The translations under genes and the position numbers were made by a program. A stretch of DNA of 64,000 nt from a virus (taxonomy: Duplodnaviria > Heunggongvirae > Uroviricota > Caudoviricetes): IMG/VR virus record IMGVR_UViG_3300020049_016248; one strand, written 5' to 3'. Numbering within the stretch: position 1 is the stretch's first letter; each line of letters starts with the position of its first letter. The notes below the pieces were generated by a model. The model saw nothing but the letters and a program-made list of their open reading frames with translations, was not told the origin of the DNA and did not search any database. Shown here piece after piece: positions 13,582-59,333 of the stretch.

Positions 13582-14055
13582 ATGAGAGTAATACTATTAA
13601 AGTTTGATTGTTTAAACTTAAACGGACGAATTTATCGAAAGGAAAGTGTTATCCCTCTTCTAGATGAATTAAATAGTAATGATATTTACGGTGAATTGGA
13701 AAATTTACCTTGTGAAGAAGTTAGTCCTTCAGAAGCTTCTCATGTTGTGAGAAATATTCGAATTGAAGGGGAATATTTAACAGGGGAAGTAGAAATTTTA
13801 AACACACCAAAAGGGGAAATTTTACGTAAAGATTTAAGTAATAGGGTTTTCAGAAGTAGAGGTCAAGGTTGGATAGATGGTTTAACTCATGAAGTTAGAC
13901 TTGAAAAAGTTTTTTCTTTTGATGCTATAAAGAAAGAAGATGATGCATTTGAAATTACTGACTTACAAGTAATTGAATCAGACTTAGAAAAGGAAATAAG
14001 TAAGATAAAAAAAGAGTTGAAGGAAGAAATAATAAACGAAATCGAAAAGGGTTAA
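13582..14055 (+). CDS. T4 gp21-like prohead protease homolog, likely degenerate; carries C-terminal tag
   Basis: NLNGRIY, GELE, ASH, EILNTPKG, RSRGQG. Confidence 0.7.
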   Translation: MRVILLKFDCLNLNGRIYRKESVIPLLDELNSNDIYGELENLPCEEVSPSEASHVVRNIRIEGEYLTGEVEILNTPKGEILRKDLSNRVFRSRGQGWIDGLTHEVRLEKVFSFDAIKKEDDAFEITDLQVIESDLEKEISKIKKELKEEIINEIEKG

Positions 14056-14059
14056 AATA

Positions 14060-14896
14060 ATGGAGAAAAGAAAACATATTTCCTTTTCAGAGTATAGACT
14101 TTATGCTGCATGTAGTTTTAAACATGCTATTCAATATAGACTCAAATTACAAGAAGGTACAAATGAATTTTTAGTGTTCGGTTCTGCTTTACATTCTTCA
14201 ATTGAAGAAATTATTCAAAAGAAGCATAGTAAAATCTTATACGAAAAAGTATTCAAGAAGTATTTAGAAATCGAATCTAATATTATTACTTTAAATTCTT
14301 ACTTTGGTAGAAACTTTTCTATTCAAGGAACAGCAATCTTAAAGACATTAGATTTCTTTGAAAGATTCAAAGAGTATGATGTTGTTGGTGTTGAAGAGGA
14401 AATAATGGAACCTTTATTTCAAGATGAAGATGGGGAGTTCAAATTCAAAGGTATCATTGACTTAATATTAAAACACAAAGAAACAGGGGATATATTAATT
14501 ATAGATTGGAAGTCAGCAACAAAACCTTGGGATATAGATAAAAAACTAGAGGATAAAAGTTTTTTTGGACAATTAGCTTTATATAAACATTTCTTTTCTA
14601 AAAAACATAATATACCCTTAGATAAAATAACTACTCGATTTGTCGCTTTAGCACGAGACCCAATTGATGTACAACAGTATGAGATTAAAATCTCTGATGA
14701 GTTTAGAGAATATATTGTTGAGGATATGACTAGAGTAGCTAAAGAGATAAAACAACAATTACCTTCTACAGAGTTAACTAAAGCTAAAAGTGTTAGTTTA
14801 AGTGCATGTAAATATTGCGCGTTTAATAAAGGTATTTGTACTAATGATTTAAAACAAGATATTGATACAAAAAATGAAGAAGAAAAAAGTATCTAG
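14060..14896 (+). CDS. PD-(D/E)XK exonuclease (Cas4/RecB-like)
   Basis: ISFS..Y..C, FGSALH, GIIDL..IIDWKS, QLALY, CKYC..C. Confidence 0.9.
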   Translation: MEKRKHISFSEYRLYAACSFKHAIQYRLKLQEGTNEFLVFGSALHSSIEEIIQKKHSKILYEKVFKKYLEIESNIITLNSYFGRNFSIQGTAILKTLDFFERFKEYDVVGVEEEIMEPLFQDEDGEFKFKGIIDLILKHKETGDILIIDWKSATKPWDIDKKLEDKSFFGQLALYKHFFSKKHNIPLDKITTRFVALARDPIDVQQYEIKISDEFREYIVEDMTRVAKEIKQQLPSTELTKAKSVSLSACKYCAFNKGICTNDLKQDIDTKNEEEKSI

Positions 14897-15539
14897 AAGA
14901 CCTCGTGTTGGTATTGTTATCGACTATAGTCTTCGTGTACCTAATTTTAAAGAAAGTTATCTAAAGTTTAAAGAACAAGTATTAGTAGGTGTAGCTTCTG
15001 CTGCTAATTTAGGTGAAGAAGATATTTTAGATGAAAATAACTTCTGGGAGAAAGAAAAGAAACTACACCCAGAAATGATTACTTTTTACTCTAAAACACC
15101 AGTCCCTAATTCCAATTGGGAACCTGGATTCGATTTAACATATACAAAGTATTTCTTTAACAAAGATCATTTATCTAAATTTTTAGAAGAGTGGTCTTTT
15201 AATTTATTTGGACAAGGTATTATTGCTAATAAAGCTGATATTAACATTGTTAATTTAGCTCAAAGTAAATTGTTTGATGTAGTTTTATTAGATGTAATTA
15301 CACATACAAGAAAAGTAGCTAATACTTTTGCGTTTTTATCTAAATCTGGTTTGTTTGTAAAAGAAGTAAGATTTGTAAGTGAAAGTGAATTAGAATCTTT
15401 AGGGAAAGAGTTTATAGGTTTATGGAACCCTTTTTTAGAAGAAGGTAAAGTTATAGAAGGTGTAGGTAAGTTTGAGAAACCTACGCAGAAACTTTTAGAT
15501 TGGTTTATGGAATTAGAAACAAAGCAAAATACATTATGA
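14862..15539 (+). CDS. hypothetical protein
   Basis: 225 aa ORF within the operon. Confidence 0.55.
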   Translation: MIQKMKKKKVSRRPRVGIVIDYSLRVPNFKESYLKFKEQVLVGVASAANLGEEDILDENNFWEKEKKLHPEMITFYSKTPVPNSNWEPGFDLTYTKYFFNKDHLSKFLEEWSFNLFGQGIIANKADINIVNLAQSKLFDVVLLDVITHTRKVANTFAFLSKSGLFVKEVRFVSESELESLGKEFIGLWNPFLEEGKVIEGVGKFEKPTQKLLDWFMELETKQNTL

Positions 15540-15829
15540 TTAAAAATTATTTAATATTTCAAGCAACTATAGGTATAAAAGGACTTAGGATGGAGGAGGC
15601 AACGAAAAGTAGTCAAGAAGTTCAAACTATTTTACAAAAAGAATTAGAACAAGAAGGTTTTACTGTTAAAGTAATTGTTGTTCCAGATACTTCTATAGAA
15701 TATGGTGTTGATATTAAGTTAATTTACCCAGTCTATAACTTAATAGATAAAGATGCTTATGATAAACATATAGAACTACATCAAGAAATAGATAAGATTA
15801 AAAAAGAATTAGAGACTAAAGTTGATTAA
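15536..15829 (+). CDS. hypothetical protein with tag-like C-terminus (EIDKIKKEL)
   Basis: ATGA overlap with the previous stop. Confidence 0.55.
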   Translation: MIKNYLIFQATIGIKGLRMEEATKSSQEVQTILQKELEQEGFTVKVIVVPDTSIEYGVDIKLIYPVYNLIDKDAYDKHIELHQEIDKIKKELETKVD

Positions 15830-15883
15830 ACTAGATAAAATAATCACTTTTAACAAAAATGAAAAACATTCGAACACAAAACA

Positions 15884-19619: not shown

Positions 19620-20027
19620 ATGTATGTAGAAATTGCACCAAGACAAACAGGGAAAACAGCTAGACTTATAGAAAGATTAGTTGTAGAGGTATTGAATGGA
19701 AAAACAGTTGCTTTGGTTAGTAGAACTAAAACAATGGCAAATAGTATTAAGCATAAAATTTTAGAAAAATACCCGGAAATAAATTCATCTAGAATAATGA
19801 CTTCACACGTTATGTTAAGGGGAGTAATAAATTTTGTAGATGAGTTTGATTTTATAGATGAAAAAAATTTATTTATAGATAAAGACAGTTATTATACTAC
19901 ATCACTTCATAATGAATTAGGTACAGTTTTTACAAGAGATTTATATATAGGGTACATAAATCAACCTGAATTGTCTGAGTTTGAGAAAGTAGTAATTAAT
20001 ATTCAAAAAGAAATTAATAATGGCTAA
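19620..20027 (+). CDS. truncated terminase-like P-loop ATPase with C-terminal tag
   Basis: APRQTGKT Walker A, FVDEFDF Walker B; only 135 aa; ends FEKVVINIQKEINNG. Confidence 0.6.
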   Translation: MYVEIAPRQTGKTARLIERLVVEVLNGKTVALVSRTKTMANSIKHKILEKYPEINSSRIMTSHVMLRGVINFVDEFDFIDEKNLFIDKDSYYTTSLHNELGTVFTRDLYIGYINQPELSEFEKVVINIQKEINNG

Positions 20028-28149: not shown

Positions 28150-31019
28150 ATGCAAATAGAAGCGCTAACTCATATCTTAGGAAAAAGAGTAAAAGTTAAA
28201 GATAAAAAAGGTGAAGAACATTTTGGTATTCTTCAATTCGTTGGTGAAAGTGAATTCTTTCCTAGTGTAGGTTTGTGTTGCACTATCAGTAGACAGCCTC
28301 ATATTCAAATCAAATCAATTTTAGATATAACTCTATTAGAAGAATAGTATGGAGAAGTTTCCCTATACAGCAGGTGTTTTTAAACGAATGGATTGCATTT
28401 GTGAAATTTATGCAATCCATTCTACCCCTAGTCGTAGTTGTGCACTTAGTTATTGTATACCAGTTAAAAGTTTACCAACTGCTTTTTTTGAATCACTGAC
28501 AGACCCAGATGATAGGGTGTTTTGTTTGAAAGAGTGGACTGTTGCTAATTGGGCTTCCAATAATCAGCTTACTATAGATGTTTCAGAAAATATTACCTCT
28601 CACTTTGGAGATGAATGTATTTGGGTGTCAGATGTTGAAATTTGTTTAATAGAAATAAAAGATATAGAAAAAGAAATTATAAAAATTAACGTTGAATTGA
28701 ATTCACAATGAGCTTAAGAGATACGGAATTAGTTTTAGGTGATATAGTTAAAATTATAATAGGGCATCAAACTTTTATTGGAGAAGTTGTTGTTGTTAGA
28801 AAGTTTTTAAGTGATTACGCTAAAAAAAATTGGAATAAAACTTTAATAAAAATTATAGACGGTGCTCCATATAAAGTACTTCCTACTCAAACTATCACCC
28901 CCACACTTTTTAGAATAACACATGATATAATTAATAGAGAATTAACAGAGCATCAGAAAGAGTTTTACATTGAAGAGTCTAATCTTCAAGAAGAAGATCT
29001 TTTCAGTTTAGCAACATGGATATCAAATGATGTTACATATTTGGAAAAGGTTTCAGAAAACATTTTACTTTTAAGCAAAACTATAAGTAGTATAAACGAA
29101 GAATTAGAAAGTTAACATGGCAACACAGACAATTTATGTTTTTCAACCTGAAGATTATCAAGGTGAATTGAATTTAAACGCATTAGAAAGAAGAATTATT
29201 GTTCGAGAATTAAAAAGAACTCAACGTTTCAATAAAGCAGTTGCTTTGTTAGGGTTTACTACAAAGAGTTTAGAACGAAAATTAGTAGCACATCAAATTA
29301 AAGAAGAAGAATGGAAAGTTATAAAACCAAGTACATCTAAGTTTAGAACAAAATGGGATTAACACAAAATGTATTCAAACCAATCTCTGTTAACAATACA
29401 ATTGTTTATAAAGACAAACAATATGTTGTAAGAGGTATAATGCAAGACAGAGGTTCTGAATGGATATTAGTAGACTGTAAAGAGGTAAGTTTTATTGATG
29501 GTAGGACTTGTTTTTTTCTAACACGTTCAATGTTAGATAATTGGTCTGTAAGAGAACCTTTGTTAGATGAAGCAAATCTTAAAATTGGAAATGCTTACTG
29601 TTGGTTACCTTCTAAGGAAGTAGAGTTACTTAGTTTAGATCAAATAATTTTAAATATTAACATTGAGTTAGATTCAAATGTGTAAAGCATTATCTTTAGG
29701 TAGGTTTCGTCTTGGACAAGTTTATTCTTTTGAAGGACTTGATTTTATTGTCCGCGGTGTGATGGATAATGGATTTGCGAATAAACCTCAAAGATTATTA
29801 TTAGAGATTTATAAAGGAATTAATTATACACACTTGAATAGTCAGTGGGAATTGAATGATTATAGTTTTGTTATGGGGGAAGATATTAACTTGTATATCG
29901 CTAATTGGGAACAACAAAATCATTTTATAGATAAAAAAGTATTACTTCCAGACTCTCGTTATATTGTATTAATGAACACTGTTTTATTATCTTTCGGTGT
30001 TGAATTAGATTCATTTTTAATGGCTGAAGAAATAAAAAAAATAACACAAGAATTAAACAATGAATAAGTTTTTTTTAAATCAAGTTTTTTTTAAAGACGG
30101 TTATTATTTAGTCGTTCGAGGTGTAACAGGTAAAAGTTTTACAGGTGTAAAATCTAATCAAGAATTATTGTTAGAAGTTCGTAGTTCTGTAGAAGGTTCT
30201 AATAATTTAATAAAACCTTCTTGGTTAGCACATTCATTTGTTTTAACAAAGGTGACAAGTCATATTGCAGCATGGGAAAGTCAAGAATTTTTAATTGCTA
30301 AAAACTTTTTAAAAGAAGGAAAAAAATATGTTTGGTTGTCAGCTGATAAGTTTAGTAGAGAAGTTTTTGAATCATTAGAAGTTATTGTAGATAATATTAA
30401 TAGAGAATTGAATGCATGAAATCTGAAAAGTTAAAATATACTAAATATACTATTGGTAGTTTATTTGATGGTAAATTAGTTTTAGGTTTACTTTATGATA
30501 AACAAATGGATGAAGGTTATCTATTAGTTGCAGATGAAGAAAGCGGTTGGAATTGGAGTGCAGCAAAAGCATACGTACCTGAAGTTCAGCAGAGGTTTGA
30601 ACAAAGTTATGACTTGGAGTGTGGTCGAAAAGTTTTGTGGAAATTTGTTTTGAGAGAACAAATTATGTTCTCAGATGAAATAGTAGATGAATCTTTTAGT
30701 AATATAGTTAACGAAATAAACAATGAGTTATACGATAAATAGTTTTTACAAAGATGGTGGAAATCTTAAACGAATTTTAGGAGTGTATGTTAATTCAACT
30801 CGTGATTCTGGAGCTATATTACTTCCTAATAGTGATGGTTGGACTTATGAAGTAGGTGTAGAGCGTAATTGGACTCCAGGGTTTACAGTAGAATATAGTA
30901 CTTGGTTGAAAGAAGGTACTCGTGTTGCTTGGATAGTTGTTGACATTGGAGATATATATTTTTCAAGTCAAGAATTTGAATTTACAATTAATCAAATAAA
31001 TTTAGAACTAAACTCATGA
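28150..31019 (+). CDS. array of 9 small overlapping ORFs; 7 end in the IN.EL tag
   Basis: Tagged ORFs start at 28349, 28708, 29353, 29678, 30060, 30416 and 30723. Confidence 0.7.
29117..29362 (+). CDS. Fis-type HTH protein
   Basis: LNLNALERRIIVRELKR..KAVALLGFTTKSLERKL. Confidence 0.7.
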   Translation: MATQTIYVFQPEDYQGELNLNALERRIIVRELKRTQRFNKAVALLGFTTKSLERKLVAHQIKEEEWKVIKPSTSKFRTKWD

Positions 31020-31756
31020 AAGCATTTTTAGAAACATTAGGTGAAGAGTATTTAGACGACTTTGTCTACTGTTCTGTTTTACCTTTAAAAGATTTAGGTT
31101 ATACAATTGTAAAATTTGATGGTGCTGATTTAGAAAACACACTTTTGAATAAACGAATTACATCTTCAGATATTATTATTGGTTCTGTAGAAGCAACGAG
31201 TGCATTTTTTCAAGAGCTTAAAATTCAAGAACCTAAATATTTAGGTTACCCAGAAGAGTTAGAACAATACTTAGGTAGAACGATTAGTAAAATTACATTA
31301 GAAGAATGTAAACAATGGAGTTATCCTTTTTTCATAAAACCGGCTGATAAAATTAAGTTATTTTCAGGTAGTTTGATTGAAAAAGAAAGTACAATAAACT
31401 TCTTAAAAGAATATTGTAATGTCCCAGGTGAAACTTTAGTTTATTTAAGTGATCTTATTAAAATTAAGTCAGAATATAGAGTCTTCGTTTACAAAGGGGA
31501 GATCAAAGGTATTCAATATTATCTAGGTGATTTTAAAACATTCCCTTCAATAGATAAAATTGAAGAAATGGTAAGAACTTACACTAGTTCACCAGTAGCT
31601 TACACGTTAGATGTTGGTGTAACTGATAAAAATGAAACAGTTTTAATTGAAGTGAATGACTTTTGGGCTATAGGGTCATATGGATTTGATGCTAAAACTT
31701 ATGTTAAGATGATTATTTCACGATTTCAACAAATAATTTTACAACATGTCTGTTAA
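31016..31756 (+). CDS. ATP-grasp protein (R2K/DUF4343-like)
   Basis: YPEELEQYLGR, FFIKP..KLFSG, SEYRVFV, YTLDVG, LIEVND. Confidence 0.85.
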   Translation: MKAFLETLGEEYLDDFVYCSVLPLKDLGYTIVKFDGADLENTLLNKRITSSDIIIGSVEATSAFFQELKIQEPKYLGYPEELEQYLGRTISKITLEECKQWSYPFFIKPADKIKLFSGSLIEKESTINFLKEYCNVPGETLVYLSDLIKIKSEYRVFVYKGEIKGIQYYLGDFKTFPSIDKIEEMVRTYTSSPVAYTLDVGVTDKNETVLIEVNDFWAIGSYGFDAKTYVKMIISRFQQIILQHVC

Positions 31757-36071: not shown

Positions 36072-36251
36072 ATGGAATCATTTAATGAATTAAAAACACT
36101 AGTAGAATCTTTACAAGCAGACGTTGAAAAGTTTTCTAGTGGAAACAATGCAGCAGGTACTCGTGTGAGAACAGGTTTACAATCTGTAAAAAAATTAGCT
36201 CAACAAATTCGTTTAGAAGTACAAGATGCTAAAAAAGCTAAAAAAGCTTAA
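36072..36251 (+). CDS. Hc1/histone-H1-like small protein (Bacteroidota type), not in the ORF track
   Basis: MESFNELKTLVESLQADVEKFSSGNNAAGTRVRTGLQSVKKLAQQIRLEVQDAKKAKKA. Confidence 0.8.
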   Translation: MESFNELKTLVESLQADVEKFSSGNNAAGTRVRTGLQSVKKLAQQIRLEVQDAKKAKKA

Positions 36252-41557: not shown

Positions 41558-41642
41558 TAAAAGTTTATTAGTTTATAGTAAATAGTTACTTTTTTCATTG
41601 TTTTCAGTAATATCTTTTTTATTTTTAGTGAAAATAAAAACT

Positions 41643-42471
41643 ATGGCTTACTTTACCTTAACCTCATCAGAACATAGAAGATTTCAGTATCTTGTTAATC
41701 TAAGTGCATTTAGTATAGGTGATGTAGTTAAAACTTGTCATGCAGGGAATGATAGTAGTTTTCCAACATACCCTATCCCTGGTTCATCATCACATGCAAT
41801 GAATAGAAGTAATCATTTAATTTCCCAGGGTGGTGAAATTGCAACAATTGTTGACATTTACTTAAACGATTCAGATCAATTGTCTTTTAAACTTCAATTA
41901 GAAAACAATTCTTTAGATTATTTTGTAGTTCGAGAAAAGTATTGTTATTTAGTCGCTAAAGGTGAAGGTGTACATGCAATCATTTATCACATTAACAAAG
42001 AATTAAATGATAAAATTTAAAGATCCGAGAAAGTTGACAAGTGAACAGGAAGAACAATTTATTCAATTTGTTAAAAAGAGTCGTATTAAAGTTGGTGATA
42101 TAGTTGCATTGCATAAAAACAAAGTAATGCATACAACAGAGACAAATAAAGTGAAAGGAGATTATGTGTATGGACAGGTTGTATGTTTAGATTTAGATGA
42201 AGAGTGTAGTGTTTTAGTAGAAATAAATTTCTCTCAATGGGAAATTCCAGAAGCTAAAATTTATGGTATTTCTCGCAACGATATTGGTTTATACTTCAAC
42301 GAAGAAGCTTGTGATAAGATTATAAGTACAGTTGGTGATAGTATAAAAGGAAATTTATTTTGGTTTCATCATGACAGTTGGGATTTTGTTGAATTAATAC
42401 TCGTTGCACCTTTTATATTTACTAACTTAGAAGATACTGTTAACTATATAAATTATGAATTATGGAATTGA
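41643..42471 (+). CDS. two tagged SH3-like hypothetical proteins (about 41643-42020, 42007-42471)
   Basis: F/I.(I/V)GD.V motifs; end HINKELN and YINYELWN. Confidence 0.65.
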
Positions 42472-44081: not shown

Positions 44082-47000
44082 ATGCGTTTTAAAGTAGGTG
44101 ATAAGGTAATTATAAAAACTAAAGAGCAAATTTATTCTTCTGGATATAATCCAGAGGATGGATTTGGTGTTTGTAAAAAAATATCAGGATGGTATTTTTC
44201 ACCTAAGATGTTTGAATATTGCGGAAGAGAATTAACAGTATCTCATATTGATTCTTTTTCTCATGAAAGCGTTCAAATTTTATACTATTTTAAAGAATGT
44301 ACTGATACTTGGAGCTGGTGTGAAGAATGTTTTCAAGAATCAATAGATATAATAGTTGCACAAATTGATAGAGAATTATGCTCGATATAAAAACTTGTAA
44401 TAATCTTTTAGGTGAAATAATAGAATTAAGTACAGTTTGGTGTTTAGATCATTTAGTTCGATATCAAAAACAAAACGTTATAGACGCTAAACATCTAAAA
44501 CCTGGGAAGCAAAAATTATTTATTTGGTTAGAAGAGTCTGAGTTAGAATATTTAGTCCCTCTCAATCAACTTCAAGAAATTGTTGTTGAGATAAATAACG
44601 AATTGAATTATGATAAAGAAAAAATTTAAAATAGGTGATTGGGTGAAAGTATTTTGGTATGGTCCTAGATATATTTTCGGTGAAATCATTTGTTTAGAGT
44701 TAGATGAAGATTGTGAATTTATAGTGCGATTTCCATCTTTTATTTTTGAAGAGTTAGAAGACACAGCTGATATGAAAGGTGAACTTATTGACTATAATAT
44801 GTTAGGGAGATATTTTATTGGAGAAAATGTATCAGGAACTCTAACAAGTATTATACCGAGTAATAAAGAAAATGAAGAAAGTAAATATCTTTGGTATCGC
44901 TATGATGAAAACTTAGTTAAATTAGTTGAAGATTTTACATTAGAATTAACTATCGCGAAAATAAACGATGAATTAAACAAAAGAAAATGATAGAAAAAAA
45001 CAAATTAGGCGCTGGTATTTCTTTTACTTTAAGAGGAAAAAAGATTAGAGGTATTGTTTGTGGTGAAAGGACACATGCACAACCTCAATACTTCACTGTT
45101 GTTCATATATTAGATTCTTCTGATGCTAGACTTATTGAAAAGTTTTGTGTAGGAGCAGGCACTCGAAACGATGATGACCCTGAAATTTATAATGTTCACA
45201 ATGAAGGTGAAATATATTCAGCTTCATCATTAGTTATAGATTCGAAGTATTGGAAAGATTTTATACCTTACGAAGAATTTGAATCTATAAAGTCAAATTG
45301 TTTCTATGTTTCATTAGGGAATTTAACTCTATGGGATGAGGAGGATGAAGTTCATAATTTGATTCGAGAAATTGATTTTGAGTTAGGGTTAGTTGTAGAT
45401 CCTAGCCCAATAATTATTGATTAAATAAGATTATTAATATAACTAATTAACTTGATATGGAATTAAAAATAGGGAGTTTAGTAAGAATTAAACTAATTGG
45501 AGAAGCACGAGAAATTCAAGGTGTTCTTATAGGTGAAAGAAAAGAAATAGAACCTCACTTTGCCACTGCTGTATATATATTAGACTCTACAGATAGTTGT
45601 AAGTTGTTAAATGAATACTCAATTGGTCATCAGAGTGTTAGATTTGTAAATCCTTTAGATAAAAGTATACATTCATTTGGGTCAGATGTCTGGTTAAAGT
45701 TAATTCATGTTAACTTGTACAATCGCATAGTTAATAATAATAAAATTTATTTAATTGATTACGAGAACTTAAGCCCTATTACCAATAATGATGGTAAGGT
45801 TATATTACTAAATCATAAAATGCTTGAGGTAATTGTAGGGATAGATGATGAGTTGAATAGGAAAATAGTTCCGTATGAAAGTGTTTATTCAGTAGATGAT
45901 GAATTATATTCTGTTGGAGCATAATGAAAAATACAAAGACAAATCATATTGCAAAAGTTTTAATGAGAACACCTATTGCTATAAGGTATTTTTCACAACA
46001 AGAACTTATTGACATTTTAAACATGGTAGGTTTACCTTTAAATAGAGTTGTGCTCGATTCAAACGGGTTACTTTCTTTTTTTTGGCATAGTCAACAAAAA
46101 ACATTTACTTTAGAAGATTTAAGCGATGGTTTTACTATCGAAAGTGGATTTGATCTTGAAGACCAAAACTTTTATGAAGCAGAACGAGGATGTGACTTTC
46201 ATCTCTATCAATATGATAAAACAAGTTATTATAAAAATTATTCTTATACAATCTTAAACTATTCTGAATTTATAGAAAAATGTGAATTTTATAAAACTTT
46301 AGAAGAAATAGAAAACGAATTAAACAATGGACCAATTAACAGAATTTAAAATAGGGAAGAAAATTGAGCTTAATTTTCATTTACCAGGTGTTTCAAATCA
46401 TATTGGAAAAGGTATTTTGATTGGTGAGAGAGTTGAACCAGTTCCATGGAAGAGTACATTAATATTAGTAAATAATAAAACTGATCGAATGTATTTAGAA
46501 AGAATTATCGAGCAAGGTGTTTTAGGTGAAGCATTGAGAAAGTTAACTGATAATTTGCACTTAGTAGATGCAAAATTTTCTAGTTATTCTGACACGTGGG
46601 AAAACTTATTAGATTATGAATTGTTGTTAAAGTTGCATAAAAACATCTATTTGATAGATTATCAACATTTAAACCAAATTTTTGATGCAAAAACTAATTT
46701 ACCTTTATCAGAAGATTTAAAATTGTTAGAAGTAGTTTCTAGTATAAATACAGAATTAAATGAAGTATAAATTAAAAGATTGGGTTTCTACAGAATATGG
46801 CTCTAAACAAATAGTAGCTATATTAGAGTATTTGGGAAGTATTAATTATATTTTAGGTTTTCATGAAAAGGACAACCCTGACTTTGATAGTGTTTGTTGG
46901 CCCAAGTTAAATGATATAACATTTCAAGAACACTATAAAGTATTTGATGATATTCAAATACTTGAAGAAGTATCTGGTGCTTTCTTAGTGTTGAAAAATT

Positions 47001-47428
47001 ATATTGGATATCGTTGTATATCAGAAAGTGAAATTTTTACAGTTGAAAAAAGGAGTGAATTAATTAATCTAGTTGAAGATATTAATATAGAATTAAACAA
47101 TTAAGATATGATAGAAATAAAATATAAATTAGGTGAGTGGGTTTACTTTAATAATGCATTACTCCAAATTGTAGCTATCATAAGATCAGATAATGAAATT
47201 CATTACATTTTAGGTTACAAAGACTATTCTTTAAACCCTAGCTGCTGGAGAAAACCAGAGTCAACATTTTCTGAATATTATCGCAGCAGGTCAGACACTT
47301 TAATTGTTTTGGAAGAATTACCCCCTGACCAATTACCTTATAAACTCTTTTTCGGTGTCATAGAGTATGACCTTATAAATGAATTTGAAAAAGTAGTACT
47401 TCAAATAAAAGAAGAACTTGTTACCTAG
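44082..47428 (+). CDS. array of 9 consecutive small ORFs, all carrying the tag
   Basis: Starts 44082, 44378, 44610, 44987, 45457, 45924, 46327, 46760, 47108. Confidence 0.75.
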
Positions 47429-48657: not shown

Positions 48658-50454
48658 ATGGAAGGGAAACTAGAAGCAAAATGGGCTTTAAGATTTAAAG
48701 TAGGTGATATTGTTCATTTATTAGATCATGAAGCTTTATATTTTTTATATTACGTAAAAGAAATTAACTTTGAATCTGAATGTTATATTGTCAATAAAGG
48801 ACTTTTATACTTTGAAGATCAAGATAAGTTTGAGTTATATACAGGTGAAGTTAGAGAAGACTTCTTAGAAGAGGTTGAAGCATTCCGATTAGGGGAATTG
48901 ATAAAATCAATCGATTACGATTTATATATGTAATATGATACAATTGAGAGATACTTTCGGACATAAGTTATTAATAGATACTGAAGAGAGTATAGGTTTA
49001 AAGGAGTGGTATTATGATAGTCTTAAAGGAACAGTATGGCAGAATATCAGCAACTCTGCTTTAAAAGAAGCTTACCCTTTCTGTTTTAAGATCATTGCAG
49101 CTGAAAAAACACTAATAGACTTATATAACATGAAAAAGGTTGAAGAGTTTTTAATTGCTAAAGAACCTGAAGAACAATTTGACTTTCTTCATTTAACATT
49201 AAGTTATAGAGGGGAAGAGTTATATGACTATTCTAATTCAAATTGGGGATATGAGTTGCAGCAACCATCATGGTCACGAGCAGAAGGGTCAAAATATAAT
49301 GGTTTAATAACATCTTCATTTGAATGTTATAAAAAAGCAGATGATAGTATTAATTTTACTATCGGAACACCACACGACTTATATCGCTTCTATTTAGAAA
49401 CTTTAGTATTACTCGAACGTGCGAACAATAGTGAAGAAATTTCAAGAGTTATAAGTGCAATTGATCGAGAGTTAAATGAAGACGAGCTTTAAAAAAGGGG
49501 ATATTGTAACTTGTATAGATAATTCTAATCTAGACATAGAAAAGAACGGTGTTTCTATAATACGTAAAGGAGCAAGATATATCGTTCAAAAGACTATGAC
49601 TTGTCATAAAGGTTGTTGTAACCTCATTGATATAGGTCTTTCAGTTGATTTCACAAGAACAAACTGCGGCTGCATTATAACAGATAAAAAATGGTGGATG
49701 AAAGCTGAAAGGTTTAGATTAGCTTCATCTACTATGAGCGAATTAGATAAAGTAGTCTACTCTATTAAAGAAGAATTAAATAAATAACTAATGGGTTCAT
49801 TTTTATATAACATAGGTGATATTGTAACAGTTCACTCTCCAGGTAAGTGTTACTCTCGCTGGGTGGAGATGTTTAAATATCTTGGGTTCAAGAACGTTAA
49901 CCCAATAGATGAAATTAATAAGAATCATATTCAAAACCAAACCTGGATTGTGTTCAACTCAATAGAACATAGTAATAGACGAACAAATATTTATGCTATT
50001 CGAAATATAAACAACTCAGATGAAGAGTTATTAATAGATGAAACAGGTATTAGTTGTGATTCAAGTATTAACGGTATAGTTTCACAGATCAATTACGAAC
50101 TTAACAATTCATAAGAAGATGTCTAATAATAAATTTAAGATAGGAGATATTATAGTTTGTGTCAACTCTGATAAGCTTCGACCAACGAGTAGGAATAAAC
50201 CACCTGTTCGTTTAGATAAGAGATATATTGTTCAAGATATTATAACCTGCGATAAGGGTTGCTGTAACCTTATTGATATAGGGTTCTATTGTCAAAATAG
50301 GATAGAGACTATGTGTGGTTATCAATTAGATGACGACATCTGGTGGGTGTCTGCTAGCCGCTTTATTAAAGATAATCTTAATAAGAAAGAAGTAATACTT
50401 ATTGAAGATGAATTACAAAGGGTATGTCATTCAATTGAAAAAGAATTAAAATAA
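48658..50454 (+). CDS. five tagged small ORFs (48658, 48935, 49476, 49791, 50119)
   Basis: FKxGDIV N-termini in four of them; tag at the C-terminus. Confidence 0.75.
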
Positions 50455-50459: not shown

Positions 50460-50801
50460 ATGAAAAATAAATTCAATATAGGTGATATTGTATATGTTAG
50501 TAAACCTGGAATGATTCATAGTACTTATGTAGATATGTTTAAAGAACTTGGCTTCATTAATCAAGTAGAGAATTCATTATACTTAGCTGATCAATTACAT
50601 CTTAAAACTAAACCTTGGGTTGTATGGGCCGTTACTAAACATCCTATCTTTAAAACTTTTATTTATGCTCTTTAAACTTTAGACTCCTCACAAAGACAAT
50701 TATTAATACAAGAGAATGGCATTGGCTTTGGTCCTTCTTCTACCTTCACTTCTGTAGAAGAAGCTATTTTTATTATGAATATTGAACTACTACAAGAGTA
50801 A
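50460..50801 (+). pseudogene. paralog of 49791-50114 interrupted by in-frame TAA at 50673-50675
   Basis: Same frame continues TLDSSQRQLLIQENGIG..VEEAIFIMNIELLQE*, aligning with the paralog and the tag. Confidence 0.8.
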
Positions 50802-51065: not shown

Positions 51066-53672
51066 ATGATAACTTTAGAACAAAAGATTCGATTTTCATT
51101 AGCATCTTCACCTCTTAAGATTTGCAATGCAACTGTCTTAGGGGTGTTAGCATGGAAAGGGTCTATTCAATATTTAGTTAGTATTGACGATGAAGAGTGG
51201 AGTAGTCAATATGGTTGGAATCCTATTCAACTTCCAGACTCGGGTTCAAGTAGTCCTGTTTCTGATTATATTACTTCTAGATTTAATTATGAAATAGTTG
51301 CTATGATTCCAGAATCATCTTTCAAAAATTACAATGCATGTTTATTTATCGACTCTTCTCAGATAGCATTATCAGGAGTTGAATTAGCAATAAGTCAAAT
51401 TAATGAAGAATTAAGTAGTTAATATAAGTCTCGTGAGAAAAACATTTCCTTTGCATTCAAAAGTAGTTTACCATGACCAAGATCGCGGTAAAACTTATCT
51501 CGGACGTGTATTAGCTATATTTGAATGTGGAACTCATGTAATAGGGTTTAAGAGTTCAGACCCGCAACCTGCTACTTGGAATCCTAATAGTCGAAAAACT
51601 CTCTCACCAGCACAGTATATTACATATGATACTAATTACTTAATAAAAGAAATAGTTCCAGCATGGGCTTTCGCAGATGAAAGATGTATGTATGTTAACC
51701 CTAATAAACTTCGAGAAGTAGATGATTTATTCAATTTAATAGCTGAAATTAATAAAGAATTAAAATAGTCAATGAATAAGAAAGTTTTAAAAGAACAAGT
51801 TTATTTAATGAAATACGAACTTGGTGTAGCAGGGAGTAAAACGTTAAGAAAAAAGTCAGCAAAGTATAATGAAAAATCTCTTTATAAAGAAGGGGAAATA
51901 GTTGAATGTGTTTTCGTAACAGGTGGCAAAGCAAAGATACATTTAATATTAGGAAAGAGTAAAAGACGTAATGCTCCGATGAATTATCTAATTGAATTAT
52001 CAAAAGGATCGAGTGGATGGGTATTATCTGAAAAAGAAAGATTACAATATGGATGTCATCCAGATAAACAATATAAAATAGTTTTAGAACAATGGCTGTT
52101 AAAAAAGCATTAAAATTCGGGGAAGATGCACCCCCTTTTAAGAAAGGTGATATTGTTGAATGTTTACCAGGTTTTGATGGTGCTGAAAAAAACGGTGGTT
52201 CAGGTTATTGGCCTGGTCGTATTTTTAAAATAGGAGAGATTTCAAACGCTGTAACTCCAATTGTACTCTGGCCAGATGAAAAGTATGATAGAGCACTTTA
52301 TAAACTAGAGGAGCTCAGTGAGCAAAGGAGATTTGATTTGAGGAACGGAGTGTATGGTTACGCGGTTACACCTATTGATGAGGCTATTTCAGTTGTAATC
52401 GATAAGATTAACATAGAGCTTAACAGTTTGTAAGTTTACAAAAAAAACGTTATATTTAGATAACTTAAAAACCCAATAAACATGGCAATCTTAAATTTAA
52501 AAGCTTTAATTTCGATTAAGGTTTATAATTCTGAAGTTTCTAGTAGATTTTATGTTAACTTTGCTCGACCAAAATGGTTATGGCGAAAGGCTCGACCAGC
52601 GCGAGTAAATTCTCTTTATGAATCACCTCTTTCAATCGAAGAGTTCCAAAAGAAGCATAAAGTTAAATATCACTGTAATGCACTTTGTTCTGAAGTAACA
52701 GTTAAACCATCTTGTCAGTTAGATTTCGGAACGGTAAAAGAAACTTTCTACTTCAACACAGTAGAAGAAGCTTTCAAGTTTCGCGATTCAATCAAATTTG
52801 AAAATACATTAGATACTGGTGATTACCCAGAAAATTGGTCTAACATATATTAATTAAAAAAATAAAACCATGGATATTAAAATCTTCACTCTCATCGGCT
52901 TAATATTTTTAGCTTATGAAATTCTAGTATTAATCTATACAACAGAATATATTAATATTCTCGAGAAGGTTAAAACTTTAGATGTTTTATTAGCAAAAGA
53001 CCCATCAAACGAACTTACTAAAAGAGAAACACTTTGGGTTGTAGTAAACATATTTTATTCGATATGGGGAATTTTCGGAATCTTAACTGATTATTTTTTC
53101 TTATTTGCTTTATGGTTTTTCATCGGTTGGGGTTTAAGTCATGTAAAAAGAGTTACCACTAATGATAATTTTAAATGGACACTCACTAAATTTGATGCTG
53201 AGATAAGTATTGCATTTTATATAGTATTGTTTGTTTCTGTATTCATTTATGGATAAAGCTTTTGACATAAACGGTGAAGAGCTTCATGTGCATGATAAGG
53301 TTTTAGAAACCTGGGAACATTCACCATTTTATAACCAGGTATTTGAAATAGTGAAAATTGACTCAGAGGGGATGGTTTATTACAGTAGACAAGAATTTAG
53401 TAGACTTTCATGTTCCCCTAGTTGTAAATTAAAAAAAGTTGAATCATTATATAATATAGTAAGTAAAATTAACAACGAATTAAATAGTTAGAACAATGGC
53501 AAGATCAGCAGGTAAAAAAGCAACATCACAAAATTTAGAAGGGAAGTCTGTTTATTTTTATGTTAAAGTTTTATCTTGCGGAACTGAATGTGTTCGTGGG
53601 CCGTATATGAGAAAAAACAAAGCAAGAAACGGTGAGAGATTAGAAGAGTATGCATTAATTAAATTTAATTAA
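51066..53672 (+). CDS. run of small ORFs (51066, 51433, 51772, 52092, 52482, 52870 membrane, about 53249, 53496)
   Basis: ORF track plus a 58-aa ORF at 53496-53672; four are tagged. Confidence 0.65.
52427..52458 (+). promoter_or_regulatory. Bacteroidota-like sigma promoter (TTTG-N20-TATATTTA)
   Basis: Matches the -33 TTTG / -7 TAnnTTTG layout, with terminal A. Confidence 0.5.
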
Positions 53673-54371: not shown

Positions 54372-54797
54372 ATGTTAACAAATAAAGAAAAGAAAAAATT
54401 ACAAATAGAGTTAAAATATTTGTTAAAAAAACATAAAGTAAAAGTTCGTAAGTGGTCTAAGAAAAACCAAGGTTTAGCTTATATTGAAAAACGAGAAATA
54501 GAAATACCAAAAGTTAATTCTATTATTAGTTTTATGATTGGTTTGCATGAATTAGTTCATGTAATTTATAATTTAGATTATAAGCGAAGTCGTTTAACAT
54601 GCGAGTTTAAAGTTGAACTATTAACAATAAACTGGGCAAAAGAATATAACTTACATAAAGATTACCCTTATGAATTTCAACATTACATTAAACACACTAT
54701 AAAACATTTAGCTATGTATTGCAATCAGGAAAACAAATATCCCAAATATGTTATAAATTGGATGAGACAAAATGAGAATAAACATAAAAAAGTTTAA
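54372..54797 (+). CDS. HExxH metallopeptidase-like protein
   Basis: GLAY..EIEIP..LHELVH..E. Confidence 0.65.
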   Translation: MLTNKEKKKLQIELKYLLKKHKVKVRKWSKKNQGLAYIEKREIEIPKVNSIISFMIGLHELVHVIYNLDYKRSRLTCEFKVELLTINWAKEYNLHKDYPYEFQHYIKHTIKHLAMYCNQENKYPKYVINWMRQNENKHKKV

Positions 54798-55518
54798 TAC
54801 TAAAACTTACGTTCAAAGAGAAAACTGGGGGAAGGGACCTTCTAAAAAGAAACAAAAACAACCTCTTTTTAAGAGAGATACTTTCCATACAGTGAAAGAA
54901 GAAATGATTAAAGCAGAATCATTAAAATTATTCGGTTGGGAGAAGTATATAGGTTATGTTCAAATAGATCCTAAAAAAATAGTTCCAGCTATAGAACAAG
55001 GTTTCAGCACAGAAGAATATGAAAACATATTACTTTTACATTCTGAAATTGGAACTGTTTTTAGTGTAGAGATAGGTAATACTTTAGTATTTTCTTCATT
55101 TCATAGTTCAGCTTCATTTACTTCTACAACAATAAAGACTAAAGCTAATGAAACATATTTAGTTCCATTAAGTTTACTGAAAACTGTTGAACCAACAGAT
55201 GAAGAAGTTTATGTTGAATTAATGAATCGAGAATTGAATAAGTAAACTATGAAGCACACAATACTTTTAAGTAAATTTGTTGAAGTTCGTTTGAAAGAAT
55301 CTCAAACGAGTAGTTTTATGTCTCATGGAATAGTTTATAAAACAAATGAAATTTCATTCAACAGTTCAGCAGCTTTATTTGCAATCAGATTAGCTGATGG
55401 TTATTTTCACTTCCTTGTTTCTCGCTTCGATATTCTCTCTTCAGAAGATGAAAAGCTTATCAATGATATTATTTTTTTTCAACAAACAATACAAAACATT
55501 AACAGGGAGTTAAAATAA
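54772..55518 (+). CDS. two tagged hypothetical proteins
   Basis: End ELMNRELNK and QNINRELK. Confidence 0.65.
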
Positions 55519-55834: not shown

Positions 55835-55864
55835 TAATTACCTATTTTTAAATAAATATTAAAA

Positions 55865-56209
55865 ATGACTAAAGATTTAGCAAAAGTGATTGTGGAAATA
55901 AGAAGAGAATTAGGTTTCCCTGATTTCTCTCATGGTGACATTGTGTTGTTTAAAAACAACTCTTATATACCACCTGAATTAGTTAAAGGTAAGTTTATTA
56001 GTTATTGCATAGAAACACCAGAGGTTGCATTGATACAAGTTGCTGTTCCTTCTGACGGTTATTATTTTTACGATTTAGCAAAAAAACATTGGGTAGAAGA
56101 AATAGAAAAATTTTTAGGTACAAAGTTAGATTCACTAGGTTACTATCTATGGGTTGAACATGTACATTTATCACTAGACTATGAAGAAGACATACCTAGT
56201 GATACATGA
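55865..56209 (+). CDS. SH3-like hypothetical protein with the tag at its N-terminus
   Basis: MTKDLAKVIVEIRRELG then FSHGDIV. Confidence 0.6.
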   Translation: MTKDLAKVIVEIRRELGFPDFSHGDIVLFKNNSYIPPELVKGKFISYCIETPEVALIQVAVPSDGYYFYDLAKKHWVEEIEKFLGTKLDSLGYYLWVEHVHLSLDYEEDIPSDT

Positions 56210-56278: not shown

Positions 56279-56542
56279 ATGAAATCAGACGTTAATTTAA
56301 TTTGTACAGAAGGTTCTAGTAACAAGTATTACAATTTCCATGATAATGGAAACGGCACATTTACTGCTACATATGGCCGCATTGGTTCTACAAAACAAAA
56401 AGCAACATACTCTTCTCGGATGTGGGATAGTAAATTGAGAGAGAAATTAAAAAAAGGGTATAGAGATGTTACAGGTGTAGACTCTAAAGATATTGAATTC
56501 CAAAAGTTAATTAAAGAAATGGAAAAGGAGTTAGCTTCGTAA
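56279..56542 (+). CDS. WGR domain protein with tag
   Basis: SNKYY..ATYGRIGS..REKLKKGY; ends LIKEMEKELAS. Confidence 0.85.
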   Translation: MKSDVNLICTEGSSNKYYNFHDNGNGTFTATYGRIGSTKQKATYSSRMWDSKLREKLKKGYRDVTGVDSKDIEFQKLIKEMEKELAS

Positions 56543-57381
56543 TGGAAAAATATTATTTAAAAACTAGTAAAGTTGAGAATAAACCTGGTCAATGGAATTC
56601 TGTCTTATGTGAGATTTACAACTCAAAAGATGAAAAGTTAGGGGAATATCTCCGACATTATTATTCATTCGCTTTTTCAACCTTTTTTCCATTTTCTTCA
56701 AACGGTAAAGATTATGCTTTGTATTCAGCTGACTACAATACAATTTCAGTAATGAATTTACCGAACTGTACACCTGTTGAACTTAAACCAGAATGTATTG
56801 AACAATTAAATCATTTTTGTCCAGTTGAAGTTTATGTCCCTCGTTTTGAAGACCATGATAAGTATAGAAGTCAAATTCATTCTTCAGATGAAAAATATGA
56901 AGAAGGTTATAGTGGGTTTTCTACTTTAGCTTTTGTTACCGGTTGTGTTTGGGGAGATGATAGTTCTTGGAAGTTAAATTTATTAGACTTGTCAAACATT
57001 GAAAACGGTGAACTATGGTATGTCGATAATTCTTTAAACAAGAAATGGTTATATGTTGATACTCCTATATCACCTGATAAATTTCATTGCTTTTTTGAGA
57101 AAGATAGCAACTTTCCTTATGCCTATGACCAAGTTATCGAAGAGCATCAAAACTTTCGACACAATATTTTAAATGAGTTAGAAATAAATGAGCATGACTC
57201 TGTAATTTCAATAGTTAATATTGAAGATATTCCTAGAGAAACAGAAGGTGTTGTAGTTCATGTTTATCATAGTTCTAAAGTTTTTGCAGTAGAATTTTTT
57301 GAAAATAAAAAAAGCTTAGGGGTATTCACAGTAAAAGGACATCAATTAAAAAAACTCAATACATCAAATGAAAATAAATAA
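56542..57381 (+). CDS. hypothetical protein with C-terminal DUF4926-like domain
   Basis: EHDSV..DIP..TEGVVVHVY..FAVEFF. Confidence 0.55.
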   Translation: MEKYYLKTSKVENKPGQWNSVLCEIYNSKDEKLGEYLRHYYSFAFSTFFPFSSNGKDYALYSADYNTISVMNLPNCTPVELKPECIEQLNHFCPVEVYVPRFEDHDKYRSQIHSSDEKYEEGYSGFSTLAFVTGCVWGDDSSWKLNLLDLSNIENGELWYVDNSLNKKWLYVDTPISPDKFHCFFEKDSNFPYAYDQVIEEHQNFRHNILNELEINEHDSVISIVNIEDIPRETEGVVVHVYHSSKVFAVEFFENKKSLGVFTVKGHQLKKLNTSNENK

Positions 57382-58309
57382 TCTTCTTAAGTCACGTTTA
57401 TTTCTCTCATGTTTAGGGACTGTAATGTTTGTATTAGGATTTTGGAGCTGGTGGCAAGTAGCTGACACTCCATCATCTACACCTATTTACTGGTTTCAAC
57501 TTACACTAGGTGTAATTTTAATAGTTTTTTCATTAGCATTAACTTATCTACTTTATCTTGACTGGTGTTCAAAAAAAGAACCTAAAAGTGAATTGAAAGA
57601 TGAATATTATTTATTTCTAGATGATGACCGTATTCCAGCTGATTGCGCTACGTATATGTATGCATTTAAAGTAGATTGTAAGATTTATCATAAACCTTGG
57701 GAGATTGTAAGATCTTATAGTCAATTCAAAGAAATAATTGAAAGGAGAGGTTTACCAAAATTAATTTCCTTTGACCATGATTTAGCTGATAATTGGAAAT
57801 TGAGAGAAAGTTTAGATATTAAAGATTGGTTTGATGAAACTGAAGGTAGAGAGTATACAGGGATGGATTGTGCAAAATGGTTAGTGCAATACTGTTTAGA
57901 AAAAGATTTACTATTACCTAAGTTTATAGTTCACTCTGCTAACCCTGTAGGGAGAGAAAATATTAAGTCTTATTTAACTAATTTCAAACTAAGACAAGGT
58001 TTAACGATTGGTGATGTTGAGTGGAGTTGGAGAAAGGATTTAAAAGATAGTTATCTTTGGGAAGCTAATTGGGTATCGTTAGATGGTGATGGGATAAGAT
58101 TATATATTCAAAAAGATGAAACAGGTTTTTCTTTAGAGTGTTTTAGTGGTATTCCAGCAAGTTCAATTAACATAGATTCAATAGATTATGGGTCATTGTG
58201 GAGTAAGATGAATGTAGTTGAACCTATATCAGATTATAGTTATATTCAACAAAGTGTAATAATAGCAAATTATTTATGTGAACAATTTTGCGAAAAAAGC
58301 GAATTTTAA
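57368..58309 (+). CDS. 2-TM protein with cyclic-phosphate-processing receiver-like domain
   Basis: LFLDDDRIP, VRSY.QF, ISFDHDL, TGMDCAKWL, HSANPVGRENI. Confidence 0.75.
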   Translation: MKINNLLKSRLFLSCLGTVMFVLGFWSWWQVADTPSSTPIYWFQLTLGVILIVFSLALTYLLYLDWCSKKEPKSELKDEYYLFLDDDRIPADCATYMYAFKVDCKIYHKPWEIVRSYSQFKEIIERRGLPKLISFDHDLADNWKLRESLDIKDWFDETEGREYTGMDCAKWLVQYCLEKDLLLPKFIVHSANPVGRENIKSYLTNFKLRQGLTIGDVEWSWRKDLKDSYLWEANWVSLDGDGIRLYIQKDETGFSLECFSGIPASSINIDSIDYGSLWSKMNVVEPISDYSYIQQSVIIANYLCEQFCEKSEF

Positions 58310-59333
58310 TATGACAAAGTTTTTTAATTATCAAGCATTCCGTAATGATGAACAAATGTTCAAACATTATGTAACAGCATTTCAAATGTTGTTCAATGAA
58401 GGATCTATTTTTGTTTCTACTAGGTTTAAAATGATTTATGTTTTTACTTCTAAAGAGTTAACTGTTAGGGAAATTGTTTTATTATTTGAGAAAAACCAAG
58501 TTGGTGGTGCAAAAACTTTTGAAGGTATTTTACAAGAAATAAGCCCTTGTTCACTTTCAGGTTATCTTCCAAAAGTTTTCTTTGACACAAAAGATGGCAA
58601 AGATCAATTTAGTAATTTTGAAGATATTTTAGTAAAAGCAAGGGAAGAAGAAAAAGGTAGCTTAATAGGTACAGTCGCAAAAATTAAAGAAGAGTTAAAT
58701 AAAGATTAGTAATGACGATAGAAGAGTTTATTGAAACTACGTATAATGTAACAGTTACACCTGGGTTTTCTTATCAAAAGATAAGACCTAGGATTGTTTG
58801 TAATGATGGGTTTAGTTTAAGTGTTCAATGTTCTGAATATGCTTATTCTACACCTAGAAAAAACATTAAAAAGTATACAGAAGTAGAAATAGGTTATCCT
58901 TCAAGTGAAGAAGAATTAATTGTTGAGTATGCTGAAGACCCAGATCATCTAACAGAAACTGTTTATGGTTACGTTCCTATAGAAGTAGTTAGAGAGGTTT
59001 TAAATAAACATCGAGGTATTAATATTGGTGCAACATTCCCTCGTATCGTTGAAGAAACAGTAAAAAAGATAAATAAAGAATTAGATGAAGAAAGATAAAG
59101 ATAAAGAAGAATTTCTCATTGACAAGAAAATTATAAGTGGATTGACCCCAGGTCAATGTAACGCTTTAGCTAACTCTATTGAAGAAAACTATCATAAGTT
59201 GAAAGAGACTTGGGAGTTGGTTAAGACAACTGCAGAACAAAAAAGATATTTAGAAAGTTTAGATTTAAGAATAAAAAACTATAGAGCATATTACGAACAA
59301 GACTTACTGAGTACAACAAAAGAAAAACAATAA
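58278..59333 (+). CDS. three hypothetical ORFs (58278 tagged, 58712 tagged, 59085)
   Basis: 58712 has RIVCNDGFSLSVQ..YSTPR..TVYGYVP. Confidence 0.65.

Follow-up and report, generated by a model that had tools for sequence, protein, structure and literature searches.

In a 64,000-nucleotide stretch of DNA from an uncultured wastewater phage (Caudoviricetes; IMG/VR record IMGVR_UViG_3300020049_016248; the whole stretch is referred to as the window), some forty small proteins end in the same peptide of 13-15 residues, with the consensus [LIF]-x-x-[ITVL]-[IV]-x-x-I-N-x-E-L-N, here called the tag. The tag is selected as a peptide, has the properties of an amphipathic helix, occurs on bodies of different families, and is conserved in related phages while these bodies turn over. 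We read it, at about even odds, as a portable C-terminal docking or address helix that would be recognized by one shared partner. Searches of the literature found no account of one C-terminal helix common to dozens of small proteins in a phage.

A shared motif at protein C-termini

The window was reduced to 124 non-nested plus-strand open reading frames (ORFs) of at least 40 residues, named here by their first nucleotide; all ORF counts refer to these 64 kb out of a genome of about 220 kb, the proteins of the window also being listed for a contig 219,579 bases long. The motif (h-x-x-h-h-x-x-I-N-x-E-L-N, where h is hydrophobic) was described by a 15-column profile and scored leave-one-out against a threshold of 10.3 bits, the 99th percentile of shuffled proteins; 41 of the 124 ORFs lie above it, where about one is expected, and in 40 of these the motif ends 0-21 residues before the stop. 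With the full profile, not left-one-out, 44 ORFs are positive, three of them weakly (34883, 35544 and 48658). The strict pattern I-[ND]-x-E-L occurs within the last 20 residues of 28 ORFs and only five times in the 16,852 residues of the bodies, a 38-fold enrichment in the tails. The original prediction, which had placed the motif at a list of C-termini and put the number of carriers at about 44, is thus upheld on both counts.

The tag sits close to the end of the chain: in 35 of the 43 C-terminal members it lies 0-3 residues from the stop, the other eight carrying longer extensions of 6-21 residues. It is also concentrated in one block, being present on 37-40 of the 76 ORFs between 28349 and 59098, with three further instances at 13582, 15500 and 19620 (Table 1). 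There is no tag on the sheath, baseplate, ThyA, sigma factor or other enzymes of the window, as had been stated for the first four; for PhoH (26409-27161), which had been listed among the untagged proteins as well, the case is not clear-cut, its C-terminus forming a borderline tag-like helix (10.1 bits against the threshold of 10.3). In one ORF, 55865-56209, a tag-like amphipathic helix stands at the N-terminal end and there is none at the C-terminal one, an arrangement that is kept in two related phages, B and C (the window's own phage being A).

Selection acts on the peptide

Because the genes of the block mostly lack a Shine-Dalgarno sequence, and many tags directly precede the start of the following gene, we considered whether its codons might be a nucleic-acid signal, serving translational coupling to the next gene or its initiation. 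Several features are compatible with this: 73 of 76 genes are without a Shine-Dalgarno sequence, many downstream starts have the tag 0-12 nt upstream of them, and about seven of the next ATGs are built from the codon of Asn +5 and the following G (positions are counted from the Ile of I-N-x-E-L as 0). In the motif-aligned codons, however, positions 1 and 2 carry 1-2.5 bits of information and third positions only 0.1-0.7 bits, the informative codons being -7, -4, -3, 0, +1, +3, +4 and +5; at I0, N1, E3, L4 and N5 the choice among synonymous codons follows genome usage (p 0.06-0.98). Matches to the DNA pattern ATH-AAY-NNN-GAR-YTN are all in frame with an ORF (25 of 25), 24 of them within 25 codons of the stop, and none was found in the window on the reverse strand or in other frames. 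Since third positions are free, codon use is that of the genome and DNA matches occur only in frame, selection acts on the tag peptide, as the original prediction had argued from the variety of synonymous codons.

The neighborhood of the tags leads to the same result. Gaps and overlaps to the next gene are alike after tagged and untagged genes; strong tags are kept even where the next gene is 48-346 nt away, that is, with no gene nearby; genes that follow untagged ones start without the motif; and the hydrophobic periodicity reaches 21 nt further upstream. The tag is thus hardly explained by overlapping start contexts, which had been named as the observation that could undo the prediction, and a nucleic-acid signal is nearly excluded, being already close to refuted.

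Anatomy of the tag

Among 40 tags, Glu +3 and Leu +4 are each present in 39 and Ile 0 in 35; position +1 is Asn in 26 and Asp in six, and Asn +5 is found in 23. At 100 degrees per residue the hydrophobic moment reaches its maximum (1.58; control tails have 0.88), and Pro and Gly together make up 2% of the tag as compared with 8% overall. In both tagged proteins folded with AlphaFold2 (AF2) the segment is helical: in 58712 the tail helix comprises residues 110-127, with a predicted local distance difference test (pLDDT) score of 86-88 where the body scores about 96, and in 30060 the helix comprises residues 95-118, the last 20 residues having a pLDDT of 55-62. By moment, composition and model, the tag is thus predicted to be an amphipathic helix poor in Pro and Gly, in line with what had been proposed for it. 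Its hydrophobic face would consist of positions -7, -4, -3, 0 and +4, flanked by the polar residues Asn +1 and Glu +3; a helix cap is the probable role of Asn +5. Two other readings were set aside: a membrane-targeting helix, as the residues of the polar face are not basic but acidic or neutral, and a clamp-binding tail, as the consensus is unlike the known clamp motifs.

The tag is carried by several protein families

Tagged proteins are small and acidic (median 116 residues, median isoelectric point (pI) 5.0, net charge about -5; for untagged proteins from this block the median pI is 7.9), and searches of Pfam and PHROGs are nearly blank for them. When their tail-less bodies are compared by BLAST, only six small paralog clusters emerge. 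One group, family A, comprises 10 proteins (the tagged ones encoded between 28708 and 32493, and 51066 and 51433) that can be aligned over their whole length. Its profile, run against 1.84 billion representative proteins, gave 12 matches, of which 11 are its own members, their orthologs or one further paralog, all ending in the tag, and the twelfth is a marginal match to a protein of 738 residues; none of the other tagged proteins was recovered by it. The bodies therefore show no detectable homology as one single family: they fall into six BLAST clusters, the family A profile stays within its own members, and 58712 belongs to a different family.

As to fold, family A has weak matches to CAP-Gly, the UvrD/CarD Tudor domain and SH3-like domains, all of them small beta-barrels, with Z scores of only 3.3-4.0; Foldseek found no match to either AF2 model in the PDB at E <= 0.001, and the look-alikes in the ESM Atlas are unnamed viral clusters. 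Since a K-x-G-D-x-V start is common to many tagged proteins outside family A, and in view of the weak barrel matches, an SH3-like fold is plausible for many of the tagged bodies. One body, 44082, matches phrog_7488 (E 1.4e-8, residues 1-92); a word-index search for its homologs gave a single close one, and tblastn against cultured phages gave none.

The portability of the tag is best seen where it occurs on a body that is known without it. ORF 58712 belongs to a widespread family, of whose 80 homologs 77 are without the tail, their chains stopping some 20 residues before its end and directly behind a conserved H-G-G; these tail-less homologs have 85-161 residues, apart from one of 217. The tail is found only in the nearest relatives (85% and 63% identity), one of which has nine residues beyond the helix. 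Similarly, 56279 carries a WGR domain (Pfam WGR, E 0.0023; phrog_23333 over ORF residues 11-69), which occurs elsewhere in other architectures; here the tag follows directly on a domain that matches only residues 14-72 of the 383-position PHROG profile, and the orthologs at 77-85% identity retain it. ORF 38152, a probable membrane protein by its hydrophobic N-terminal segments, has a weaker copy of the tag that its ortholog in phage B conserves. From the tail-less homologs of 58712, the architecture of the WGR protein and the conserved copy in 38152, it follows that the tail was added to pre-existing domains and then kept.

These comparisons had been suggested with the original prediction, and its statements that a WGR protein is among the carriers and that the tag is portable have both held. 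Its description of the bodies as unrelated needs amending: several families are without mutual BLAST similarity, and the WGR protein, the membrane protein and 58712 stand apart, but many carriers are paralogs, with the 10-member family A and five further clusters. The bodies are thus best described, on present alignments, as several lineage-specific paralog groups together with a few clearly foreign proteins.

The tag is conserved in close relatives while bodies diverge

A search with the WGR protein led to phage B (85% identity; contigs of 214 and 245 kb) and phage C (77%). For phage B, a region of 39.3 kb syntenic with the window was assembled stepwise; in it, the motif lies within 8 residues of the C-terminus in 28 of 81 ORFs, with the same consensus, and tags are also present in phage C. 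Between phages A and B, untagged neighbors are 57-90% identical (median 70%), whereas tagged proteins, the WGR protein excepted, are 31-47% identical (median 41%) or have no counterpart. In 54772, the tag is 92% identical to that of phage B and the body 40%. The system is thus conserved within one narrow lineage, in which the proteins that carry the tag are rapidly exchanged.

Variation is also seen among strains. In the window, a TAA stop at 50673-50675 cuts the tagged gene 50460-50801, the tag-coding sequence remaining downstream, and a strain of 99.7% identity (L081, 1749-2090) reads through to give a tagged protein of 113 residues. In contigs from two public runs, 49331 follows directly on 48071, so that 1,259 nt of the tagged block are missing, and several contigs diverge at or near the ends of tags (44608, 47079-47128). 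This suggests gene turnover in the tagged block at the level of strains, possibly by exchange at gene junctions.

Two further searches yielded no lead: no relatives were found among viral contigs through two untagged early proteins, and, among the matches listed for a degenerate DNA pattern of the tag in viral contigs, there were only single, chance-like ones. In its syntenic early region, phage B also has an IS1595-family transposase (L210, 5832-6725), which the window is without.

Genome context

Phage A occurs on contigs of several samples at about 99.7% identity, and the public runs that contain the stretch are metagenomes of activated sludge, anaerobic digesters, wastewater and freshwater from several studies; no close relative was found among cultured phages. 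The window is AT-rich (about 29% guanine plus cytosine), with nearly all genes on the plus strand. It encodes a tail sheath, a baseplate wedge protein, a sigma-70-type factor, a metallophosphatase, a thioesterase, an R2K-clade ATP-grasp ligase and a thymidylate synthase (ThyA), the last recognized through the annotation of a relative. In 73 of the 76 genes between 28000 and 59400 a Shine-Dalgarno-like sequence is missing upstream, many starts overlapping the preceding gene; the host is thus probably one in which, as in Bacteroidota, translation starts with no need for pairing to a Shine-Dalgarno sequence.

The heptamer CTATTTA occurs in the window at 1787, 4739, 4757, 8268, 19602, 26373 and 27162; the sheath gene and five others, all within 0-27.2 kb, have it 16-36 nt upstream, and it is probably a late promoter element. 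Nowhere in 28-59 kb is it in promoter position, so that the tagged block, judged by the position of this motif only, is probably early or middle. A scan with the sigma-70 consensus promoter gave matches no more frequent than in shuffled sequence.

Some neighbors of the tagged genes may be mentioned here. The gene before that of the sigma factor (36072-36251) encodes a small lysine-rich protein, whose counterpart in phage B is annotated as Hc1 histone-like family. ORF 54372-54797, which overlaps the start of a tagged gene, encodes a basic protein of 141 residues with an H-E-x-x-H motif, 76% identical in phages B and C and without a Pfam match; it may be a small metalloprotease. ORF 57368-58309, which adjoins the genes of the WGR protein and of a protein with a weak DUF4926 match, combines a hydrophobic N-terminus with a cREC_REC (cyclic-phosphate processing receiver) domain (E 6e-21) and is 61-74% identical in relatives.

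Table 1. Tagged ORFs and associated features of the window. Bits are leave-one-out profile scores unless stated.
ORF	Strand	Length (aa)	Tag or tag-like helix	Bits	Feature	Remarks
13582..14055	+	157	13984-14022	18.5	K-rich, structural region, tag-like helix	10 residues to stop; similar K-rich ending in distant relative G001
15500..15829	+	109	15776-15814	17.7	Tag-like helix	4 residues to stop
19620..20027	+	135	19980-20018	15.0	Tagged; tail resembles that of 47108	CTATTTA 18 nt upstream
28349..28711	+	120	28664-28702	14.7	Tagged	2 residues to stop
28708..29115	+	135	29071-29109	17.9	Family A	Family alignment
29353..29685	+	110	29635-29673	18.6	Family A	Family alignment
29678..30067	+	129	30020-30058	11.9	Family A	BLAST paralog of 30060
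30060..30419	+	119	30375-30413	26.4	Family A	AF2-folded
30416..30742	+	108	30695-30733	21.8	Family A	
30723..31019	+	98	30975-31013	19.7	Family A	Stop overlaps R2K gene start by 4 nt
31016..31756	+				Untagged R2K-clade ATP-grasp ligase within tagged array	Pfam R2K_2; speculative candidate reader
31746..32096	+	116	32052-32090	23.7	Family A	
32089..32493	+	134	32431-32469	14.1	Family A	7 residues after tag
34883..35518	+	211	35474-35512	3.0	Weak variant, doubtful	10.8 bits with full profile
35544..35744	+	66	35700-35738	5.5	Weak variant, basic, doubtful	13.2 bits with full profile
35745..36020	+	91	35976-36014	22.1	Tagged	Next gene 51 nt off
38152..38538	+	128	38494-38532	11.0	Probable membrane protein, weaker tag	Phage B ortholog 12.0 bits
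39752..40033	+	93	39983-40021	18.9	Tagged	BLAST paralog of 52092
40020..40274	+	84	40230-40268	24.7	Tagged; K-x-G-D-x-V start	
41598..42020	+	140	41970-42008	16.4	Tagged	
42007..42471	+	154	42427-42465	12.8	Tagged	Paralog of 44610
44082..44390	+	102	44343-44381	19.1	Tagged	phrog_7488 body
44378..44629	+	83	44570-44608	23.5	Tagged	6 residues after tag
44610..44990	+	126	44940-44978	23.4	Tagged	
44987..45424	+	145	45350-45388	12.2	Tagged	11 residues after tag; paralog cluster with 45457, 46327
45457..45924	+	155	45820-45858	12.9	Tagged	21 residues after tag
45924..46349	+	141	46287-46325	12.8	Tagged	7 residues after tag
46327..46770	+	147	46723-46761	18.2	Tagged	
46760..47104	+	114	47060-47098	18.8	Tagged	Paralog of 47108
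47108..47428	+	106	47384-47422	14.3	Tagged	Next gene 117 nt off
48658..48933	+	91	48889-48927	8.6	Weak variant	Below threshold; 15.4 bits with full profile
48935..49492	+	185	49439-49477	22.5	Tagged	
49476..49787	+	103	49743-49781	19.7	Tagged	Paralog of 50119, 44% identical
49791..50114	+	107	50067-50105	22.0	Tagged	
50119..50454	+	111	50413-50451	10.6	Tagged	Tag ends at stop
50460..50801	+				Tagged gene with premature stop 50673-50675	Strain L081 reads through, 113 aa
51066..51422	+	118	51378-51416	13.4	Family A	Family alignment
51433..51768	+	111	51727-51765	18.0	Family A	
52092..52433	+	113	52386-52424	21.3	Tagged	Next gene 48 nt off
53231..53491	+	86	53447-53485	25.9	Tagged	
54772..55245	+	157	55201-55239	13.0	Tagged	
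55249..55518	+	89	55477-55515	16.5	Tagged	Next plus-strand gene 346 nt off
55865..56209	+	114	55877-55915	15.2	N-terminal tag-like helix, none C-terminal	97 residues from C-end
56279..56542	+	87	56498-56536	14.9	WGR domain, tagged	Pfam WGR, phrog_23333
58278..58709	+	143	58662-58700	17.1	Tagged	
58712..59098	+	128	59048-59086	15.3	Widespread-family member, appended tag	AF2-folded

A proposed shared reader and its alternatives

On the docking reading, the phage would attach the helix to many small, acidic, fast-evolving accessory proteins of a non-late block; the variable body would give each protein its own target or activity, and the constant helix would plug all clients into one shared partner. 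Both the docking and the nature of the partner are inferred here from the properties of the clients. As 40 or more of them cannot share a single-copy site at once, the partner is most likely either a machine that handles its clients in turn (an unfoldase or protease, a loading or transport apparatus) or an assembly present in many copies (the capsid interior, a compartment shell, an abundant host complex). That N1, E3 and N5 are kept across bodies diverged beyond recognition argues for such an external partner, rather than for packing of the helix on its own folds, and the low confidence of the family A tail was counted on the same side. Several observations weigh against this reading: no reader was found, though no binding test was made; the pLDDT of 86-88 on the tail of 58712 could mean that it packs onto its own body; many tagged proteins are paralogs, so that part of the sharing is common descent; the expression timing of the tagged genes has a sequence motif as its only basis; and in G001 and G002, distant relatives to which the baseplate protein led (35-45% identity), the tag is absent from the available 54 kb and 95 kb, mostly structural, so that the system appears, in the genomes compared, to be known from one narrow lineage only.

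Common descent is also the core of the main rival explanation, a lineage-specific expansion without a shared reader, which we consider unlikely but by no means negligible. Here all or most tagged genes would derive from one ancestral small protein, of which the helix is the slowest-evolving part, serving the protein's own fold or its homo-oligomerization, and the foreign bodies would have gained the helix by recombination with a neighbor at the 3' end. The six paralog clusters among the tail-less bodies, the alignment of family A along its whole length, the K-x-G-D-x-V start in many other members, the restriction of the family A profile to this lineage among 1.84 billion representatives, its weak fold matches to small beta-barrels throughout and the well-placed tail of 58712 (pLDDT 86-88) all agree with it; it fits poorly, however, with a tag on clear non-paralogs (the 58712 family, the WGR protein, the membrane protein) that is conserved in relatives at 57-85% identity, with the low confidence predicted for the tag region of family A, and with invariant polar residues, which are hard to explain for a helix packing against different folds. 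Oligomerization may be imagined among different clients as well, the helices zipping into short bundles that yield mixed oligomers or a condensate, with no separate reader; the amphipathic character and the heptad-like spacing of the hydrophobic positions would allow this, but a helix of four turns is short if it is to form a stable coiled coil, and there is no complementary charge pattern, which makes such co-assembly a highly improbable account.

The remaining explanations each name a particular reader. A degron, or a tether to an AAA+ protease, would bring about the timed destruction of early proteins, or would link these as adaptors to an unfoldase-protease of the host or the phage; the SspB tether and bacterial degrons are likewise peptides at the C-terminus, the tag lies at most 3 residues from the C-terminus in 35 of 43 members, and the block, being without the presumed late motif, probably encodes early or middle proteins, but the known degrons have no structure, unlike an amphipathic helix that conserves Asn and Glu, and up to 21 residues are tolerated after the motif; ClpP-like genes of phages, moreover, often encode head-maturation proteases. 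We regard it as improbable, and loading into the virion or a compartment as slightly more so. In the latter, the helix would dock on a scaffold, the capsid interior or a shell, and the clients would form a counter-defense library packaged with the DNA; the internal proteins of T4 show a like pattern, with a constant tag on fast-evolving bodies (PMC3012670), and a lattice offers many sites for many clients. Against this stand the absence from promoter position in 28-59 kb of CTATTTA, which precedes sheath and structural genes, the acidity of the tagged proteins (median pI 5.0), and the 40 or more species that would need packaging; further, Pfam and PHROG scans of part of the window ORFs turned up no shell or scaffold gene, though no systematic search was made. 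Finally, the R2K ATP-grasp ligase might recognize the tag and modify all tagged proteins, either on the invariant Glu or at the C-terminus. Its ORF (31016-31756) matches Pfam R2K_2 with E 1.3e-34 and 119.6 bits, the cut-off being 26.2; the gene is surrounded by the family A array, its start overlapping a tagged gene's stop, and is found at the same place in phage B (L210, 1806-2534). R2K.2 enzymes occur in phages and are predicted to be protein-modifying peptide ligases, with targets unknown (PMC4431377). Since many large phages that have no such tags also carry R2K genes, however, and the shared position counts as a single observation, phages A and B being syntenic, the ligase as reader is speculative and only a lead, to which we assign a very slight probability.

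Relation to known terminal peptides

The closest published analogue of the tag is the capsid-targeting sequence (CTS) of T4, carried by IPI-III and Alt. The T4 internal proteins form a very varied group of proteins for defense, of which only the targeting sequence is conserved (PMC3012670), and in both cases a short, conserved, portable terminal peptide is found on diverse, fast-evolving small phage proteins. For the tag, conservation is likewise confined to the peptide, with several body families that lack mutual similarity and a median identity of 41% for tagged proteins against 70% for their neighbors. The CTS, however, is N-terminal, has about 10 residues and is removed by the head protease, whereas the tag is a C-terminal amphipathic helix (the motif is C-terminal in 40 of 41 ORFs), has 40 or more clients, and is encoded outside the units marked by the presumed late motif. 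Because the CTS is N-terminal and cleaved, the tag is not a member of that class.

Other comparisons concern logic rather than class. Encapsulin and microcompartment peptides are short terminal peptides on unrelated cargo that dock on one repeated partner, and the microcompartment encapsulation peptide is an amphipathic helix, of a length and spacing similar to the tag. The tag agrees with this description in being a short terminal amphipathic peptide (by moment, Pro and Gly content and AF2) on unrelated cargo (58712, the WGR protein), but its consensus differs, and its clients are small non-enzyme proteins of no assigned role. The C-terminal ClpX-binding tail of SspB and the ssrA degrons also link varied proteins to one processing machine through C-terminal peptides; these are unstructured and need no helix, and the tag tolerates extensions of up to 21 residues. 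In poxvirus ankyrin/PRANC proteins, and in F-box and SOCS-box adaptors, a variable binding body is joined to a C-terminal module that stays constant and brings in one machine of the host, which is the same logic as in the tagged proteins; the modules are, however, unrelated and much larger domains of the eukaryotic ubiquitin machinery, with no homology to the tag. Encapsulin and microcompartment peptides, the SspB tail and F-box-type adaptors may thus be said to share a logic with the tag, without a demonstrable relationship.

Implications

Rather tentatively, the helix may be taken as one instance of a general protein-addressing code of huge phages that has not been described so far, in which a clade-specific helix and a dedicated, co-evolving receptor would direct small, fast-evolving effectors by the dozen to a single site or machine; a loading apparatus, an unfoldase and the embedded R2K ligase are examples of what this receptor might be. 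With half of the genes in a 31-kb block sharing one label, a reader would place dozens of proteins in a common pathway, and would give access to the small, fast-evolving genes, which of all parts of huge phage genomes are understood least. Should the tag indeed be an address, it would further provide a compact, transferable module of 13 residues for directing proteins in the host.

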